From a virus (taxonomy: Duplodnaviria; Heunggongvirae; Uroviricota; Caudoviricetes), in IMG/VR virus record IMGVR_UViG_2540341016_000013: DNA of 26,426 nt; one strand, written 5' to 3'. The notes beneath the pieces were generated by a model. It was not told the origin of the DNA and ran no database searches. It saw only the letters and a program-made list of their open reading frames with translations. Below, in pieces: positions 546 through 7,122 of this stretch (within the stretch, counting starts at the first letter, position 1; each line of letters opens with the position of its first letter). The position numbers and the translations under genes were made by a program.

Positions 546-1309
546 CAAAGCCCTGACGATCAACATCGACCATTACGGTGGCATTCGGTTTATTGCCTGT
601 CAGATAATAATAATCAACAACCGTCATACCCTGGGTATATTTCCCCTGTGTTTCCACGCCAACCCAGCGCTCAACAGAGGTAAATAACTCCGGTTTCAAC
701 AGCCAGGCGATGGTGCATGGGTCATGCAGTGGTGCGCCGACAAAGCCCCATTTTTCGTCTTTATGATATTCGAGGAAGAAATCCAGCAGTTCGGCAACAA
801 TGGTTGAAACAGGGTTGCCAATCGCGCGGAAACGCTCAGTGTCTTCAACGTGGATTTGTGCTTTGTGAGTAACATCCAGACCGGCCATCACCACCGGGAT
901 CCCTGACTGGAAGACAATTTCTGCCGCTTCCGGGTCAACGTAAATATTAAATTCAGCCGCAGGCGTCCAATTACCCAGCCCCATTGCGCCGCCCATAATC
1001 ACGATACGGGCAATTTTGCTATGCAGTTCCGGATGGCTATTGAGCAGCAAGGCAACGTTAGTTTGCGGTCCGGTAGACACAATCGTGACAGGTTCCGCAC
1101 TTTCGCGCAGCGTTTTCGCCATCAGCTCTACCGCCGTACAGTTTTGCGGTGCGAACGTCGGTTCCGGTAATGCCGGGCCATCCAGACCGCTTTCGCCGTG
1201 CACATTGTCCGCGATAATCAACTCACGCATTAACGGTTTTACCGCACCGCCTGCTACCGGAATATCGGTGCGATTAAGCAAGGTCAGCATACGCAGAACA
1301 TTGCGTAAG
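546..1309 (-). pseudogene. rihA: IU-nucleoside hydrolase family gene fragment (RihA-like), truncated at both ends
   Basis: ORF 541-1290 translates to a ribonucleoside hydrolase with the GPQTN motif. Its C-terminus ends ...DVDRQGFG then a TGA supplied by the IS1 terminus. Upstream of 1309 the frame stays open but lacks the N-terminal DxDPGxDD calcium-binding motif, so the 5' end is also missing. The rihA paralog assignment is from memory. Confidence 0.7.
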
Positions 1310-1353
1310 TGATGCGCCGCGCGATAAATGCACTCTATCTTGTGCGATAAATG
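1310..1353. repeat. Prophage terminal transposase-binding-like repeats (Mu attR R1/R2-like)
   Basis: TGATGCGCCGCGCGATAAATGC followed by ACTCTATCTTGTGCGATAAATG: two adjacent 22-bp units sharing GCGATAAATG, starting with TG exactly where hydrolase homology stops. Resembles the Mu right end as I recall it. Confidence 0.6.
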
Positions 1354-1387
1354 GCATCCACGCGGCGTTTCATTATTTGAAAAAGAA

Positions 1388-1960
1388 TTACATTTCAGGT
1401 TGCGTTATGACAGTCCCAACAGGGTGATAGCGGTAGATCGTTGACAGTCCAATATCATAGATAATTGCCAGCCGCTTTCTGTCATACCCTTTCTGGAGCA
1501 ATCTTGCGATCTGCTCATGCTGCTCCTTCGTCAGTTTCGGGCGACGTCCTCCAACTCTTCCTTGTGCTCGCGCAGCAGCCAGTCCTGCCAGCGTGCGCTC
1601 AACTATCAGTTCACGCTCCATTTCTGCCAGTGCACCCATCATATGAAAAAAGAACCTTCCCATCGGAGTGCTGGTATCGATTGAATCCGTCAGACTGCGA
1701 AAATTGACACCTTTTGCGCGTAGCTCTTCTGTGAGAGCAATGAGGTGTTTCATTCTTCTACCCAACCGATCCAGCTTCCAGACCACCAATGTATCCCCTC
1801 TTTTAAGGCACTTTAAAGCGCGTTTCAGGCCTGGTCGTTCCGACTTGGTTCCGCTCATTTTGTCCTCAAAAATCTGTTCACATCCTGCGCACATTAATGC
1901 ATTGCGTTGCAAATCTATGTTTTGGTCATTTGTTGACACACGTATGTAGCCAATCAGCAT
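1388..1960 (-). CDS. Serine DNA invertase (Gin/Hin/Cin/Pin family)
   Basis: [22 protein letters not shown]...[10 protein letters not shown]...[21 protein letters not shown] is a resolvase/invertase catalytic domain with a C-terminal HTH. Start taken at the internal ATG 1958-1960, which has an AAGGGAG SD; the longer ORF N-terminus looks like out-of-gene read-through. Confidence 0.9.
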
Positions 1961-2014
1961 TAAAAATACTCCCTTTTGAGTGGTTAAAGTACTGAGATAA
2001 TGTGGGGAGGATTT

Positions 2015-2040
2015 GAGAGATAAACGTTGGTTTGGGGGAA
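2015..2040. other. Left recombination crossover site (hix/gix-like) of the invertible segment
   Basis: Reverse complement TTCCCCCAAACC-AA-CGTTTATCTCTC; the shared half TTCCCCCAAACC plus AA core resembles the hix/gix half-site (AAACC-AA-GG). Sits at the outer boundary of the left inverted repeat. Confidence 0.5.
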
Positions 2041-2226
2041 GGCTCTGCATTGCCTGTTGGTGTACCGGTTCCATGGCCCACCGCCACACCGCCAGCAGGC
2101 TGGTTAAAGTGCGACGGGCGCGCCTTTACAAAAGAACAATATCCTGTTCTGGCCAGAGTCTACCCGACCCTCCGTCTTCCCGATTTACGCGGTGAGTTTA
2201 TCCGTGGATGGGACGACGGGCGCAAA
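2027..2226. repeat. Left 200-bp inverted repeat of the invertible tail-fiber segment
   Basis: Identical by eye to the reverse complement of 3445-3644; encodes GEGSALPVGVPVPWPTATPPAGWLKCDGRAFTKEQYPVLARVYPTLRLPDLRGEFIRGWDDGRK in both copies. Confidence 0.85.
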
Positions 2227-2544
2227 GTTGATACAGGACGTAAGTTGCTGTCCGCACAAGGGGCAACGCTGTTAAGAACAGCAATGCTGGATTATTATAA
2301 CCAGGACACTACGGGAACCTCGGGGATAGTCGGCATGGGATTCAACAATGAAGATTCCATTACAGACCTTCGTGAGGGCAGCTTTAAAATGCCGGACGGG
2401 ACAACATTCAGCGATCCTGTCGTGGCAATGTCAGACAATGGTATGCAGGCTACTATTCTGACCTCTATCAGAAGCGGGTATGCGAAGGGTATCACTGTCA
2501 GACCCCGTAGCATTGCACTTAATTACATTGTGAGGGCAGTTTAA
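2032..2544 (+). CDS. Alternative tail-fiber C-terminal cassette (Sv-prime), promoterless in this orientation
   Basis: Frame opens inside the left IR with no genuine start (the listed M is TTG); after the shared IR-encoded region it diverges into a distinct C-terminal domain ending ...IALNYIVRAV; stop overlaps the tfa start (TAATG). Confidence 0.7.
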   Translation: MGEGSALPVGVPVPWPTATPPAGWLKCDGRAFTKEQYPVLARVYPTLRLPDLRGEFIRGWDDGRKVDTGRKLLSAQGATLLRTAMLDYYNQDTTGTSGIVGMGFNNEDSITDLREGSFKMPDGTTFSDPVVAMSDNGMQATILTSIRSGYAKGITVRPRSIALNYIVRAV

Positions 2545-3158
2545 TGAGTAACACTGCAGTTCTGGATGAAAACGGTATCGCCACTGTAGCGGGCGATATC
2601 ACTGTATATCACTATGACGAGGAAACCCGGGAATACACCTCATCCTCTGTGGAGTATCTCGCCCTTGGGGTGGGTACTCCGGCACATTCGTGCGCCGATG
2701 CACCGCCGGAGGCAATTTCGGGTTACGTGGTTTGCCGGACTGCCACGCTGAACGGGTGGGAGCATGTGCCTGATCACCGCGGCGAGACGGTATACAGCAC
2801 GGAGAACGGTAACCCTGTTCTGATTACCCAACCGGGTGATTACCCGGCGGACACCACCACAAAACAGCCAGCCACGCCATGGGATACCTGGAACGGTGAG
2901 GCGTGGGTAACCGATACTGAACGGCAGCGAGCCGCAGAACTGGAGGTTGCCAGACAGCAACGCCAGCAACGGGTGAAACAGGCGATGGCGTCAGTCGATC
3001 TTATCAACCTCAAACTGCGTGCTGGTCGCAGTCTGACACCAGAAGAAACGGCAAAACTGAACGCCGTGCTGGATTATATCGACGAGCTGAACGCACTGGA
3101 TATCAGCACGGCACCTGAAATCAGCTGGCCGGAAGCGCCACTGGCACTTGCCAGTTGA
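2544..3158 (+). CDS. Tail fiber assembly protein (Tfa/U-like chaperone)
   Basis: 204-aa ORF directly coupled to the Sv-prime cassette; N-terminal MSNTAVLDENGIATVAGDITVYHYDEETREYT resembles phage Tfa chaperones. Confidence 0.75.
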   Translation: MSNTAVLDENGIATVAGDITVYHYDEETREYTSSSVEYLALGVGTPAHSCADAPPEAISGYVVCRTATLNGWEHVPDHRGETVYSTENGNPVLITQPGDYPADTTTKQPATPWDTWNGEAWVTDTERQRAAELEVARQQRQQRVKQAMASVDLINLKLRAGRSLTPEETAKLNAVLDYIDELNALDISTAPEISWPEAPLALAS

Positions 3159-3164
3159 ACGGTA

Positions 3165-4456
3165 TCACGCCGCCCTCACGATATAGTTAAACGCGATATT
3201 GCGGGGGCGGGTTATGTTAAAGAATGCTCCGTTTAATTCGGCTTTTGCGCGACTGTTTGTTCCACCCAGAATTACGTACCACAAATAATCGCTACGGTAA
3301 TTCCCCGCAAACACCTTATCGCCGCCATAGTCAATATTATTTCCGTTACTCATGTACGAGATATCAAGCGAAGAATCGTTATCGTCATGACCGCCGACCA
3401 GTGTACCTTTCTGCCATGAAAGCAACTTACGCCCCTCGTCAATCTTGCGCCCGTCGTCCCATCCACGGATAAACTCACCGCGTAAATCGGGAAGACGGAG
3501 GGTCGGGTAGACTCTGGCCAGAACAGGATATTGTTCTTTTGTAAAGGCGCGCCCGTCGCACTTTAACCAGCCTGCTGGCGGTGTGGCGGTGGGCCATGGA
3601 ACCGGTACACCAACAGGCAATGCAGAGCCTTCCCCCAAACCAAGGTAATTGAGGACATCTTTTATACTGCCCTTAGCGATAATAGCGCGACCAATAGCTG
3701 TAAGGGTTGCCAGCGCTGCGCGGTCTGCTCCGGTAAAATAAGGCAACCGATCTGCTGCAGTGGCAAGTCCTGCCAGAGCAGTGAGCGTGGCATCTGCCGG
3801 TTGTTTTCCGTTTGCCAGATCGTATGCAGCCTTGACCGCTTTCGGTGTGGCGGCCAGTATTTCAGACGTGCTGTTGATGGCACTGCTCAGTTGTACGGTG
3901 CCTTTTGCCGTCAGCGAGGCAGCAGGCACTCCCGTTATCTGACTCCACGGGTGAGTGTGGCTGACGGGCGCCTTGCCGGCTGCAAGGTCGTATGCAGCCT
4001 TGACCGCCTTCGGCGTGGCAGCCTCAGTTTCTGATTGACTGTCCGTGGCGCTGCTCAGTTGTACGGTGCCTTTTGCCGTCAGTGAAGCCGCAGGCACTCC
4101 CGTTATCTGACTCCACGGGTGAGTGTGGCTGGCAGGCGCCTTGCCGGCTGCCAGGTCGTATGCAGCCTTGACCGCTTTTGGTGTGGCGGCCAGCGTTTCA
4201 GAGGTGCTGTTGGTGGCACTGCTCAGTTGGGTGAACCCCTTAGCTGTCAGTGTCGCGTCCGGGTGGTTACGGGAACGTACGTGTTCAGCCAGTGACTGTG
4301 CGGCTTCCTCCGTTTTCTTCTTCAGCCATTTCGTCCTGTTTGCCAGTTGCCGGGGGCTCGATTTGATATCCCGTCTGCACCACCCAGAACCGGATCTGAT
4401 GTCTCCAGTTGATAGATATTTTCTTCCCACTTTTCTGTTTCATTCAGGTTTCCCAT
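3165..4456 (-). CDS. Tail fiber protein (P2 gpH / Mu S-like), currently fused to the Sv cassette; apparently frameshifted near the N-terminus
   Basis: ORF 3165-4430 has P2 H-like shaft repeats and a C-terminus ...NIAFNYIVRAA. The only ATG with coupling to the upstream gene is at 4454-4456 (MGNLNETEKWEENIYQLETSDPVLGGADGISNRAP...), which is one frame off and joins the long frame at a 5-nt homopolymer (4352-4356). Confidence 0.8.
3445..3644. repeat. Right 200-bp inverted repeat of the invertible segment
   Basis: Reverse complement matches 2027-2226; lies inside the expressed tail fiber gene. Confidence 0.85.
3631..3656. other. Right recombination crossover site (hix/gix-like)
   Basis: TTCCCCCAAACC-AA-GGTAATTGAGGA; the AAACCAAGGT core matches the hix-type centre as I recall it; at the outer boundary of the right IR. 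Confidence 0.5.
3783..4247. repeat. About 2.8 tandem 168-bp (56-aa) repeats in the tail fiber shaft
   Basis: cgtatgcagccttgaccgc recurs at 3821, 3989 and 4157 (period 168); protein repeats TAKG(F/T)(T/V)QLSSA...AATPKAVKAAYDLAAGKAP(A/V)SHTHPWSQITGVPAASL. Confidence 0.8.
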
Positions 4457-4458
4457 AA

Positions 4459-5037
4459 TCAACTGCTCCCGTGGTTATAACTGCCATCATGGATGGCGGT
4501 ATTGTTATAGCGAATGGCCACAGACTGATACTCCAGGCTGGCCAGATGGCAGCGGGCCGGTGCAAATGCAGCCAGCGTCTGACGCAGCATCGCGGCCTGA
4601 TCGTTAGTAATGGGCTGTTTCAGAATAACGCGATAAACTGCCCAGGCGGCTGCATCTCCATGAACAAACAGTCCGTTATAGCTGCGATTGCCGTCGTAAC
4701 TGAGACGACCTGTGCCTTCAATCAGATCCACTTCACCAAAGCCAAAACGGCGGATAACTTCCCGGATTGACCACGGCGTCCCTTTATACCGGTGCAGTTC
4801 GATGGCTGCTTTTATAAGCATGCGGCGAACATCGTCCGATTCCGCCAGCTCCCAGCCATCGCCAGACAGTGAGAACTGCTCGCCCAGCCATGGCAGCGCG
4901 GAACTGTCGACGATATCGACGAGAAAGACCATCAGTACGCTCAGGTCGATGTTATCCAGCCGTCCTGCCAGTCTTCCCAGCGTCCTGAGACTGATATCAC
5001 CCTCAAGCGGTGGCGGGAGTTGTAATGGCTCAGTCAT
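4459..5037 (-). CDS. Baseplate/tail protein I-like (P2 gpI family)
   Basis: 192 aa, position between the J-like and fiber genes; N-terminal MTEPLQLPPPLEGDISLRTL pattern fits gpI. Confidence 0.75.
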   Translation of the reverse strand: MTEPLQLPPPLEGDISLRTLGRLAGRLDNIDLSVLMVFLVDIVDSSALPWLGEQFSLSGDGWELAESDDVRRMLIKAAIELHRYKGTPWSIREVIRRFGFGEVDLIEGTGRLSYDGNRSYNGLFVHGDAAAWAVYRVILKQPITNDQAAMLRQTLAAFAPARCHLASLEYQSVAIRYNNTAIHDGSYNHGSS

Positions 5038-6133
5038 CAGACACTCCAGTCATGTTAAGAGTGATTGCCGTACAGTTTGCCCATTCGTTTTCTGCCACCA
5101 CCCGCAGTGCCGGTGTCACCAGTTCAACCTGGTACACCCCGGAAACGGACAATGCACTGATAATCTGGCTGGGGACAATATCGCGCCCCAGCGTGGCGGC
5201 ACGTGATGCCACCCAGTTCTGTATGGCGCTGTTAGCGGCATCTTTTACAGACCTGGCATCCTGATCACGATAGATCGTAATCCTGGCTTCAATGGTGTAA
5301 TCCACCTTCACTGGTGTTTTAGCCCGCACTGTATCAGTGAGTGGCCTGACTTTCTCATCAGAGCAGAAACTCTCTACCAGCGTGAGAACACCGCCGTCCG
5401 GCAGACCGGTACTGAGCAGCGGATACAGATCTACGGTCCCGGGAACCGGGGAAAGCACAGCAACATCGACAATGTTGGGATGGGCCTGCATGGCATGAAA
5501 GCGGTATGCGCCACGGCTTCCGGCATTGGTGAATGACTCCGGGGCCAGCCTGATACGCTCCCGGAGCCTGTCATCGTCTTCCTGTTCTGAACCGCCGGAA
5601 CTGGCCGTCAGATTGCTCACCAGCAGGTCGACGTTATCAATCTCATCGAGTAACTGACTGACCTGCGCAGGTTGCCAGCCGTTACCAGCGGTACCGGGTT
5701 CGGTACAGGTGGACGTGACATTGACCAGCAGCAATCCGGCCTTCAGTACCACATCTGTATCGGTGGCAAAAATAACGCTGTCGGAAGCGCTGACGCGGGT
5801 GCCTGCCGGGATCAGCACATCAATGGCCAGTGCCTCATCTACGGAGAACTGGAGCGTGGTGGTGGCAGGCTGCGCGGCAAGACGGTATACACCAACCAGT
5901 TCACCGAGGTAATCAATCATCGGCTCACGGGCAAAGGCGACCAGATTCTGCTTTGCTGCCTCCTGTACCGCAACCCTGACCAGCATTTCGCGATAGGCCC
6001 ACAGATCAATCAGCAGACGTTCTGCCTGTGCCGGGTACAGCGTTTTGCCGGTATCCGCTTCATACTTCGCAATCATTTCTGCCGTAATTTTGTCGGCATC
6101 GCGTTCAATAAAATCGGGTTCTGTCAGCGCCAT
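5030..6133 (-). CDS. Baseplate assembly protein J-like
   Basis: 367 aa, between the W-like and I-like genes as in P2/Mu baseplate modules. Confidence 0.8.
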   Translation of the reverse strand: MALTEPDFIERDADKITAEMIAKYEADTGKTLYPAQAERLLIDLWAYREMLVRVAVQEAAKQNLVAFAREPMIDYLGELVGVYRLAAQPATTTLQFSVDEALAIDVLIPAGTRVSASDSVIFATDTDVVLKAGLLLVNVTSTCTEPGTAGNGWQPAQVSQLLDEIDNVDLLVSNLTASSGGSEQEDDDRLRERIRLAPESFTNAGSRGAYRFHAMQAHPNIVDVAVLSPVPGTVDLYPLLSTGLPDGGVLTLVESFCSDEKVRPLTDTVRAKTPVKVDYTIEARITIYRDQDARSVKDAANSAIQNWVASRAATLGRDIVPSQIISALSVSGVYQVELVTPALRVVAENEWANCTAITLNMTGVSDD

Positions 6134-6471
6134 AGCAGCTCCTGAGTCCGGGTCTGTCCGTCTGAGCCTTTCCAGCTCACCCGGAGCGTAAGATGTTCGC
6201 CGTCGACGGCGGGTTTAACTGACATAAGCTGGCAGCGGGGCTCCCAGCGCCGGATGGCATCGACGGATTCGCGCACCACATGCGGAATGGCCCGGTCTAC
6301 AGGCCAGTCGATATAAAGATGCAGATTGCTGCCGAACTCCGGGCGATGCGGGTCGCTGCCGCGGGGAGTCCGCAGGATAATTTGAATCGCCTGCCGGATA
6401 TCATCCAGCCCCCGGACAATTTCGCCGGGAGCCTGCAGGGCTGGTTGCCAGAATACTGAGGTTGTTTTCAT
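6124..6471 (-). CDS. Baseplate protein W-like (GPW/gp25 family)
   Basis: 115 aa, typical size and position; overlaps the J-like start by 10 nt. Confidence 0.75.
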   Translation of the reverse strand: MKTTSVFWQPALQAPGEIVRGLDDIRQAIQIILRTPRGSDPHRPEFGSNLHLYIDWPVDRAIPHVVRESVDAIRRWEPRCQLMSVKPAVDGEHLTLRVSWKGSDGQTRTQELLWR

Positions 6472-6525: not shown

Positions 6526-7122
6526 TCAGTGGGAGTGGTGGCTGGAGTTTTCGCCATCAGACAACATACTGCCCGTGGCATGGGCATTCCCTTTAATCTC
6601 GATATTGCCATGGATGGTCGCGGTAACACCTTCACCACCAGAACCCGCCATGCCTCCTTCGTAAATCAGCTTACCCCTGACACGCAGATCTCCGGTAAGT
6701 TCGGTTTCCGGTGCGTCAATCGTGGCTTTCTGTGTTTTCAATACCACATCAGCACCACACTCAATGACAATATGCTCAATGCCGCCCCGGATGGTCAGAG
6801 TGTGCGTCTTCCGGTTGTAGCTGTACTCTGCACCATCAGCAAACCGGGTTCCCCGGATATTTTTGTCACTGAACGGTGGTTTATCGACGTCTGAATACAC
6901 CGCGCCCAGAATAACACCATCCTCGCCGTTGGCATCGAGCAGCACCTCAACCTGCTCCCCCACGTCAGGGAGCCAGTAATCTTTGTTATCCTGGGTATTG
7001 CGCTGCAGCACGTTAAGCCAGTTTGTGCGCAGGTTATCGCATTCAGGCAGACGAACGCGGGCCTGAACCCTGTCGGCATCAACGGCACTGACCGTACCGA
7101 CCTGACGAGTGACACCAGTCAT
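6526..7122 (-). CDS. Baseplate spike protein V-like
   Basis: 198 aa; size and position match gpV/Mu gp45; Gly-rich C-terminal region. Confidence 0.75.
   Translation of the reverse strand: MTGVTRQVGTVSAVDADRVQARVRLPECDNLRTNWLNVLQRNTQDNKDYWLPDVGEQVEVLLDANGEDGVILGAVYSDVDKPPFSDKNIRGTRFADGAEYSYNRKTHTLTIRGGIEHIVIECGADVVLKTQKATIDAPETELTGDLRVRGKLIYEGGMAGSGGEGVTATIHGNIEIKGNAHATGSMLSDGENSSHHSH

Follow-up and report, generated by a model that had tools for sequence, protein, structure and literature searches.

The window, that is, the whole stretch of 26,426 nucleotides that was analysed, is contig APXY01000213.1 of the draft E. coli assembly GCA_000357565.2. The locus described here lies next to the host gene rihA and comprises the following features.

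1310-1387, no strand: terminal 78 bp of a BcepMu-like transposable prophage, starting TGATGCGCCGCGCGATAAATGC...; host rihA stops at 1309
1388-1960, minus strand: serine DNA invertase gene of the Din/Gin family (190 aa), running from the ATG at 1960 to the stop at 1388, with its transcription directed outward from the invertible segment
1871-1942, minus strand: candidate Fis-dependent recombinational enhancer, assigned by position only (invertase gene nt 19-90)
2015-2040, plus strand: left crossover site, with outer half GAGAGATAAACG, core TT (2027-2028) and inner half GGTTTGGGGGAA
2024-2252 (perfect 2027-2225), no strand: left inverted-repeat arm, coding for the tail-collar domain that heads silent cassette B (Pfam Collar at residues 10-57 of the cassette ORF)
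2027-2544 (ORF 2032-2544), plus strand: silent fibre cassette B; counted from the crossover it has 172 codons, and its C-terminus reads ...RPRSIALNYIVRAV; no constant part precedes it
2544-3158, plus strand: tail-fibre assembly (chaperone) gene, 204 aa, Pfam Caudo_TAP (E=3.5e-28)
3165-3643 (fibre ORF 3165-4430), minus strand: active fibre cassette A, at present fused to the constant part; counted from the crossover it has 159 codons, and its C-terminus reads ...RPRNIAFNYIVRAA
3418-3646 (perfect 3445-3643), no strand: right inverted-repeat arm, coding for the tail-collar domain of the expressed fibre (Pfam Collar at fibre ORF residues 274-321)
3630-3655, minus strand: right crossover site, with outer half TCCTCAATTACC, core TT (3642-3643; AA on the plus strand) and inner half GGTTTGGGGGAA
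3644-4456, minus strand: constant 5' part of the fibre gene, ATG at 4456, with three 168-nt repeats (3805-4308)

The carrier of these features is a BcepMu-like transposable prophage inserted in rihA. In a comparison with 5,422 E. coli genomes, the rihA homology ends at 1309, and the same prophage end adjoins six different flanks in other genomes. Relatives of the prophage encode a DDE transposase, a MuB-like ATPase, Gam and Mor, and the related phage PhiKM is classified in Bcepmuvirus. When the ST131 prophage was searched by simple matching, its other end showed no inverted counterpart of this terminal sequence.

A first-pass annotation of this DNA had placed a serine invertase gene beside a 1.6-kb segment, which is correct: the gene lies 55 bp from that segment, and its product contains the Pfam domains Resolvase (E=5.7e-51) and HTH_7 (E=1.3e-12). 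Over residues 1-181 the protein matches structures of Gin (PDB 4M6F with E=1.3e-92; 3UJ3 also at about 1e-92), and Ser9, Arg7, Asp64, Arg65 and Arg68 are invariant in an alignment with Gin, Pin and a P2-like invertase. Its identity amounts to 82% with the P2-like invertase, 73-76% with Gin and Pin, and 71% with Cin. From WP_000904922.1 it differs by the single substitution T15I, which is unseen in relatives. The candidate enhancer in the 5' part of the gene corresponds to the Cin enhancer, annotated at cin nt 19-90 in the P1 record; the homologous stretch of the window shares 74% identity with cin and retains a Fis-like G-N13-C 15-mer at nt 22-36. Conservation of this stretch, third codon positions included, does not rise above the coding background. 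Two other Fis-like motifs, at invertase nt 94-108 and 140-154, lie off the position annotated in P1 and were dropped. A scan of positions 1300-4600 revealed no sigma-70-like promoter on either strand, including for the invertase and the chaperone gene, and terminator-like hits in the same interval occurred at chance level only.

The two arms of the inverted repeat are 229 nt long, 96% complementary and spaced by 1165 nt. Their longest perfect stretch measures 199 bp (2027-2225 paired with 3445-3643), and the long perfect repeat that had been described thus stands, whereas its proposed length of 200 bp (2027-2226 and 3445-3644) is one base too great. A perfect inverted repeat of 199 bp cannot have arisen by chance. 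This perfect repeat begins precisely at the core dinucleotide of the crossover sites (2027-2028 and 3642-3643), both of which have a 12-2-12 layout and share the same TT/AA core in inverted orientation. On the opposite strand the left site reads TTCCCCCAAACC AA CGTTTATCTCTC, and the right site reads TTCCCCCAAACC AA GGTAATTGAGGA on the plus strand. The pattern TTCNNNNAAACCAANGT occurs twice in the 26.4 kb, both times at the repeat edges, with 0.00 occurrences expected from shuffled sequences. An alignment bears out the earlier proposal of 26-bp hix/gix-like sites at the outer edges of the repeats, as the sites are in register with the gix sites of D108 and the cix sites of P1, read from the genomes, and with a published table of Din-family sites that includes mix and pix (PMC3241671 Table 3). 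The nearest published sites are the mix sites of p15B and the pix sites of e14; for comparison, pixR, set beside the left site, reads TTCTCCCAAACC AA CGTTTATGAAAA, and mixQ''R' of p15B, set beside the right site, reads TTCCCCCAAACC AA GGTAATCAAGAA. Inner half and core of the mix-type pattern (TTCCCC[CT]AAACC AA CGTTT.. / GGTAAT..) are identical in the window, and the outer halves agree with mixQ''R' at 9/12 positions and with pixR and mix over the first 5-7 positions.

As the right site falls within the fibre coding sequence (...VLNYLGLGEGS...), an inversion would swap the tip of the fibre. Inverting the segment in silico indeed gives an in-frame fibre ORF of 434 codons that ends in tip B, which supports the predicted exchange of the fibre C-terminus from tip A (...RNIAFNYIVRAA) to tip B (...RSIALNYIVRAV); both C-termini quoted in the first-pass annotation agree with the translations. 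In the relatives L006 and L007, cassette B is annotated as part of one fused fibre CDS. The only tail-fibre assembly gene in the segment, at 2544-3158, is co-oriented with cassette B, the stop codon of which overlaps the chaperone ATG (TAATG), and none follows cassette A. In the orientation of the window, which is also that of the ST131 complete genome, strain S2, the chaperone gene is antisense to the fibre operon.

The fibre gene is disrupted as sequenced: a 1-nt deletion in the C-run at 4352-4356 of the constant part leaves a stub of 44 aa. The window and four identical sister assemblies have five Cs here (C5); nine relatives have six (C6). Because of this frameshift, flipping in the clone at hand is probably without a change of phenotype at present, as likewise e14 flips although that prophage is defective. 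Annotation pipelines name the pieces of the locus 'phage tail protein, incomplete'. The identity of the locus as a switch explains such 'incomplete' tail-protein annotations as well as the assembly breaks and differences that are met here.

An exact-protein look-up with the T15I form of the invertase retrieved sister assemblies that have both this substitution and the rihA insertion in common with the window. In three of them (L017, L019, L024), 3.5-6.0 kb agree with the window at 100% identity; in another three (L020, L023, L025), 3.5-5.9 kb agree at 100% identity with the window flipped in silico, without a single mismatch or gap. These assemblies are short-read drafts, in which the orientation may be arbitrary wherever the 229-nt repeat exceeds the read or k-mer length, and while six sister contigs cross both arms, three others end inside the right arm. 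It could thus be argued that the switch is a fossil in this genome and that the differing orientations reflect the choices of an assembler at an unresolved repeat, a view to which the T15I substitution in the invertase and the fibre pseudogene would add. We think that this is very unlikely, because the six contigs that span both arms match one or the other orientation without a mismatch, because the sites in the window are intact and identical to those of rearranged loci, and because complete genomes display the same polymorphism of orientation at shared insertion sites. Of these, CE10 (flipped) and AR_0013 (as in the window) share one insertion site in a lom gene; the former is colinear with the flipped window and the latter with the unflipped one, at 99.4-99.5%, and AVS0575 and AVS0754 have a common irp2 insertion site and a different cassette order. 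The rihA-prophage junction of the window was not found among the complete E. coli genomes. Also relevant is a preprint (bioRxiv 10.1101/2022.05.07.487787) that reports a reversible inversion, confirmed by PCR and XmnI, of the tail-fibre genes of the ST131 prophage Entero_P88. The phage record PV468777.1, named Entero_P88, holds this invertase at 99.5% identity together with the same cassettes, and the prophage of the preprint, an apparent homologue, is tied to the present locus by record name and host alone. Compared at the level of assemblies, both states are shown to exist in otherwise identical DNA, and as far as these sequences tell, the DNA switch still flips in an E. coli prophage.

What drives this flipping can be judged from the point of exchange, which is mapped by natural markers in complete genomes. 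The outer 12-bp half-sites stay with the flank, and the SNPs of the arms move with the cassette from index 20 or 32 onward (index 32, 35, 36, 41, 53 and 68 in AR_0013/CE10; 20 and 23 in L001/L005/L011), so that the crossover is confined to 7 (or 19) bp including the core, at both ends. Exchange within 7-19 bp around the core is site-specific and therefore not homologous. It is thus extremely unlikely that RecA-dependent homologous recombination between the repeats of 199-229 bp inverts the segment and that the 26-bp sites and the invertase are incidental. The arms would be long enough for RecA, and their perfect identity over 199 bp in this lineage suggests a past gene conversion between them, but homologous exchange would be expected anywhere along the ~229 bp, whereas all arm-specific SNPs travel with the cassette and exchange is limited to the outer edge. 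A different possibility is that the flipping is site-specific and real, the T15I enzyme is inactive, and some other Din enzyme in the host, such as that of e14 or of a P2-like or P1-like element, acts in trans. Din invertases are known to cross-complement, as reportedly described by Tominaga in 1991; several such loci are common in E. coli, with a median of 2-4 matching places per genome with any match; and T15 is conserved in Gin, Pin and Cin. However, the invertase ORF is intact with all catalytic residues present, and Hin probably carries Ile at the position equivalent to residue 15. That the T15I clone shows both orientations is most simply understood if its own enzyme works, and it would fit flipping in trans equally well. 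Taken together, we consider an inactive T15I enzyme that is replaced in trans to be unlikely.

Hence, the region is with high probability a site-specific inversion switch of the Din family (Hin/Gin/Cin/Pin/Min) for phage host range, located at the right end of a BcepMu-like prophage in E. coli rihA. In the mechanism that we propose, the adjacent 190-aa serine invertase would bind as dimers at the two inverted 26-bp sites, cut both at the central TT/AA, and rotate and religate the ends, by which ~1,617 bp (2027-3643) would be inverted. The last 159 codons of the fibre gene (tip A) would be exchanged for 172 codons (tip B), and the first ~76 codons of either tip are the common tail-collar domain supplied by the repeat arms. 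In the B orientation only, the single chaperone gene would come to lie downstream of the fibre gene, translationally coupled to it. We infer that the flipping is done by the neighboring invertase and not by another Din invertase in the cell, and that the two tips bind different receptors; flipping presumably also depends on an enhancer, bound by Fis, near the 5' end of that invertase's gene.

The position of the chaperone gene permits a more tentative and rather doubtful reading, according to which the switch may toggle the supply of the chaperone along with the fibre tip, so that one assembly gene serves two to four tips. If this holds true, tip A folds without a co-expressed chaperone or with one that is provided in trans. 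Such a design would depart from that of Mu, P1 and e14, where the Sv-U sets are paired.

The carrier prophage is widespread in E. coli: about 830-850 of 5,426 complete genomes gave matches, although loci of related type that belong to other elements are counted among them. Only two sites and two cassettes are present in the window; three sites are present in the same-prophage relatives L003, L005, L006 and L007, and four in the P1-like plasmid L011. By this comparison of sequences, the window represents a multi-cassette system in its two-cassette form; the same module of invertase and cassettes exists in versions with two, three or four tips and is also found in P1-like phage-plasmids. A recent deletion from a three-cassette form was considered as its origin. 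The two-cassette form may instead be old, because a relative in S. Typhi, which is 91% identical, has the same two-cassette layout; the left site of this relative is identical to mixMI''L'.

The switch is a further case of the long-known Gin/Pin/Min invertase family, well supported and ordinary, and it opens no new mechanistic question. The first-pass annotation had called it a distinct variant of the G/C/P-segment family, with repeats much longer than those of Mu and shorter than those of P1. The order of lengths is right, given 21 nt in e14, 58 nt including the gix site in D108, 34 bp in the Mu G segment (PMC4406740) and 636 nt in P1, but the term 'distinct variant' is overstated, as repeat length was its sole basis and as the Min (p15B)/Pin group has the same type of sites and the same cassette layout. 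In the Min multiple-inversion system of plasmid p15B (Sandmeier/Iida/Arber 1990-92; mix sites in PMC3241671 Table 3), the inner half TTCCCCCAAACC and the core AA are identical to those of the window, and the right outer half of the window, GGTAATTGAGGA, has its counterpart in GGTAATCAAGAA of mixQ''R'. In the window's relatives, the third site, CGTTTTTATGCC, equals the outer half of mixMr''N'. Min, like the window and its relatives, some of which have 3-4 cassettes, has short 3' fibre cassettes that can replace one another, with a site at the head of every one; it differs in having more than two sites with overlapping segments on a P1-like plasmid, whereas the window has two sites and two states in a transposable BcepMu-like prophage. 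The invertase of pJIE250-3 (MN510445) is reported to be 98.5% identical to Min.

The Pin system with the P segment of e14 in E. coli K-12 is similarly compact (~1.8 kb), and its adjoining invertase, 75% identical to that of the window, is also transcribed away from the segment. It shares the AA core and has a very similar inner half (TTCTCCCAAACC), but its repeats are only 21 nt long compared with 229 nt, and it has two chaperone genes (tfaP and tfaE) instead of one. Gin of Mu and D108 likewise switches a fibre tip at the right end of a transposable phage, with the invertase gene just outside the segment and directed outward. There, however, the G segment spans 3 kb and has a GA/TC core and two S-U pairs, compared with ~1.6 kb, a TT/AA core and one chaperone gene in the window, and the repeats of D108 fall short of the 229 nt found here. 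In the window, moreover, no com-mom lies downstream, the invertase stop codon is 78 bp from the phage end and the genome order is different. In the C segment of P1, switched by Cin, long repeats also code for a shared part of the variable fibre, the sites lie at the outer ends and the core is AA; P1 differs by its longer repeats, a segment of 4.2 kb, two chaperone genes and a cin gene that points toward the segment and encodes an invertase 71% identical to that of the window. The layout of Mu G and P1 C, with two convergent sets of a fibre part and an assembly gene (Sv-U, Sv'-U'), is absent from the window: D108, P1 and e14 have two assembly genes each, and the orientations of the window, unlike those of Mu and P1, are not symmetrical.

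Flipping of a fibre C-terminus has been seen experimentally in E. coli cultures for two related cases, the P2-like prophage of EPEC E2348/69, described as a tail-fibre 'shufflon' with three repeats and four variants (Goldberg et al. 2014, PMC4272514), and Entero_P88 of ST131. Their layout of three sites and three tips matches the relatives L003, L005 and L006, whereas the window has two cassettes and another insertion site. The reports on both prophages leave sites and crossover undefined. The window provides a cleanly mapped case of invertase-driven host-range switching with the sites, the exchange point and both states documented.

The switch consists of a serine invertase gene and an adjacent invertible segment that carries two alternative 3' parts of a tail fibre, cassette A (expressed in the window) and cassette B (silent), with the following features:

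from 1310: end of the prophage element, TGATGCGCCGCGCGATAAATGC...
1388-1960, minus: invertase ORF, 190 aa, with Resolvase and HTH_7 domains
2015-2040: left 26-mer crossover site, in cassette sense GAGAGATAAACG-TT-GGTTTGGGGGAA
2024-2252 and 3418-3646: inverted-repeat arms, 229 nt, 96%
2027-2225 and 3445-3643: perfect part of the inverted repeat, 199 bp
2032-2544, plus: silent fibre cassette B, with a Collar domain
2544-3158, plus: tail-fibre assembly gene (Caudo_TAP)
3165-4430, minus: expressed fibre ORF with three Phage_fiber_2 repeats and Collar, its 3' end within the segment
3655-3630: right 26-mer crossover site, in cassette sense TCCTCAATTACC-TT-GGTTTGGGGGAA

The inverted repeat had been described in the first-pass annotation as perfect over 200 bp; it exists, and that length is one base too long. 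The tail-collar domain is encoded by the repeat arms, and each cassette therefore brings its own collar copy, together with a variable tip of 80-100 residues and a conserved RPRN/SIA.NYIVRA strand at the end. The assembly gene, whose ATG overlaps the stop codon of the silent cassette (2544), is found after cassette B only. In the orientation of the window it is antisense to the fibre and convergent with the fibre ORF (3165-4430, minus), and cassette A is without a co-expressed chaperone gene. The stop codons of the assembly gene and cassette A are separated by only 6 nt, and no terminator was found at this convergent junction (3158-3165), whereas in D108 a bidirectional terminator separates U from U'.

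The central TT of both 26-mers is the exact start of the perfect repeat, and the pattern TTCNNNNAAACCAANGT occurs at two places in the window, both of them crossover sites, with 0 expected. Both sites align in register with gixL/R of D108 (TTATCCAAAACG-TC-GGTTTACAGGAA) and with cixL/R of P1, all taken directly from the phage genomes. Among the Din-family sites tabulated in PMC3241671, the right site is closest to mixQ''R' of p15B (TTCCCCCAAACC AA GGTAATCAAGAA), and the left site is closest to pixR and to the mix sites (..AA CGTTTAT../CGTTTT..). The right site lies within the fibre reading frame (...VLNYLGLGEGS...), and flipping the segment in silico keeps the ORF in frame, now with tip B at its end, in agreement with the annotation of two relatives with the same prophage (L006, L007), where the fused fibre genes encode 667 aa.

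The invertase matches the Gin crystal-structure sequences 4M6F and 3UJ3 over residues 1-181 (E about 1e-92); its identity is 82% to a P2-like (Gemsvirus) invertase, 75% to e14 Pin, 73-74% to D108 Gin and 71% to P1 Cin. According to the alignment it retains catalytic Ser9 as well as the conserved Arg and Asp residues. A single change, T15I, distinguishes it from WP_000904922.1, the protein of all relatives examined. This change at codon 15 (window 1915-1917) is unique to this clone; the residue is Thr in all other copies examined, and also in Gin, Pin and Cin.

Searching for exact copies of the T15I protein retrieved sister assemblies that share the rihA/IS1 surroundings, and showed the window to be contig APXY01000213.1 of GCA_000357565.2. 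Three of these draft assemblies (L017, L019, L024) have the orientation of the window, with 100% identity over 3.5-6.0 kb, and three (L020, L023, L025) are 100% identical over 3.5-5.9 kb, with 0 mismatches or gaps, to a reference in which 2027-3643 of the window was inverted in silico; L021, L022 and L026 each have one orientation or the other, with 0-2 mismatches. The right arm contains the ends of three sister contigs, as would be expected from mixed orientation or from a repeat left unresolved, and therefore orientation in draft assemblies alone is no proof of flipping. Complete genomes provide independent support. In CE10 and AR_0013 the prophage occupies an identical position in a lom gene; over 5,341 bp CE10 is colinear with the flipped form of the window (99.5%), and over 5,692 bp AR_0013 is colinear with the unflipped form (99.4%). 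AVS0575 and AVS0754 share a common irp2 insertion and differ in cassette order. The junction of the invertase with cassette B was counted in 301 complete E. coli genomes, and that with cassette A in 204.

In all loci the 12-bp outer half-sites keep to their own flanks while the arms travel with the cassettes: GAGAGATAAACG always adjoins the invertase, TCCTCAATTACC always keeps to the constant part of the fibre, and CGCATAAAAACG or GGCATA[AG]AAACG comes after a cassette end. The B arm diverges from the A arm from site index 32 onward in AR_0013 and CE10 and from index 20 in three further loci (L001, L005, L011), and these B-arm markers move with cassette B in every case. The exchange thus takes place within 7-19 bp including the core, which argues against RecA recombination along the 229-nt arms and is the signature of site-specific recombination.

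The fibre gene itself appears to be damaged in this copy. Its ATG is at 4456, and the long ORF that starts from GTG 4430 lacks the true N-terminus. A C-run at 4352-4356 (minus strand) is C5 in the window and in four sister assemblies of 100% identity, whereas nine related loci, and also two near-identical sister assemblies, have C6; the loss of 1 nt results in a frameshift after codon 35 and a 44-aa stub. As it was found again in independent assemblies, the frameshift is probably real for this clone, and the switch would therefore flip a pseudogene, as does that of e14 (PMC4272514). The C5 run may reflect either a fixed mutation or phase variation by strand slippage. With the frameshift repaired, the fibre would have about 457 aa. 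Its shaft (3805-4308) is built from three copies of a 168-nt (56-aa) tandem repeat; seven copies are present in intact relatives (L003, L006), whose fibres have 664-667 aa. Either shaft length differs by repeat copy number, or repeats were collapsed in short-read assembly. The GPW/gp25 baseplate gene is intact in the window (6124-6471) and has an internal stop in AR_0013 (L004 7816-8163) and CE10 (L008 8476-8823); the genes at which this prophage decays thus differ between copies.

Homology to rihA ends at 1309, and the prophage end is 78 bp from the invertase stop codon, with no com-mom found there beyond the invertase. The prophage lies within rihA, whose remnant (541-1290) lacks about 62 N-terminal codons. 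Directly beyond the other end of this remnant is an IS1 copy (215-530; InsA ORF 215-490, minus), within which the window contig and several sister contigs start. In other genomes the element end (TGATGCGCC...) stands against six different flanks, namely rihA, irp2, lom, downstream of aroA, acnA and one unidentified, which is the signature of a BcepMu-like, Mu-type transposable phage. The window runs on into Mu-type late genes, the ST131 copy has genes for a DDE transposase, a MuB-like ATPase, Gam, gp16 and Mor, and PhiKM, a related phage, is placed in Bcepmuvirus. Together with the varied flanks, these findings indicate that the host element is a transposable prophage.

Relatives with the same prophage (L003, L005, L006, L007) have three cassettes and three sites. 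Among the relatives there are at least five types of tip, and the assembly gene is single in every case, so that they share the Min (p15B) design of multiple cassettes with one assembly gene. The window shares its two-cassette form with AR_0013, CE10, phage 503046 and an S. Typhi record of 91% identity (L016), and this form is therefore not restricted to this E. coli lineage. In that record (LT905089.1, 3440-5780) the invertase and two-cassette segment have their own diverged Mu-type end, and its left site has exactly the sequence of p15B mixMI''L'. The P1-like plasmid pKY1497_2 (L011, NZ_AP019805.1) carries an identical invertase and four cassettes next to a Mu-type end (TGATGCGCC..., 6620-6665) that directly adjoins a resident cin-like gene, truncated at codon 13 (MLIGYIRISTNDD). 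This arrangement suggests that the transposable phage entered cin and, by subsequent recombination within the fibre gene, passed the host-range module to P1-like plasmids. Among the plasmids listed, at least eight have homology beginning exactly at window 1310.

Fibre-tip inversion in E. coli cultures has been described for prophage e14, a Mu prophage and P2-like prophages, the latter including a three-repeat, four-variant case (PMC4272514), and a preprint reports PCR-confirmed reversible inversion of ST131 prophage fibre genes (bioRxiv 10.1101/2022.05.07.487787). The phage record PV468777.1, tied to that preprint by name and host only, carries the invertase and cassettes of the window. The invertible fibre switch recognized in the first-pass annotation is correct and now well documented. 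The repeats were also rightly called intermediate in length, the 229 nt of the window comparing with 21 nt in e14, 58 nt including the gix site in D108 and 636 nt in P1, but these lengths mark no meaningful class boundary, and the switch is a further member of a textbook family.
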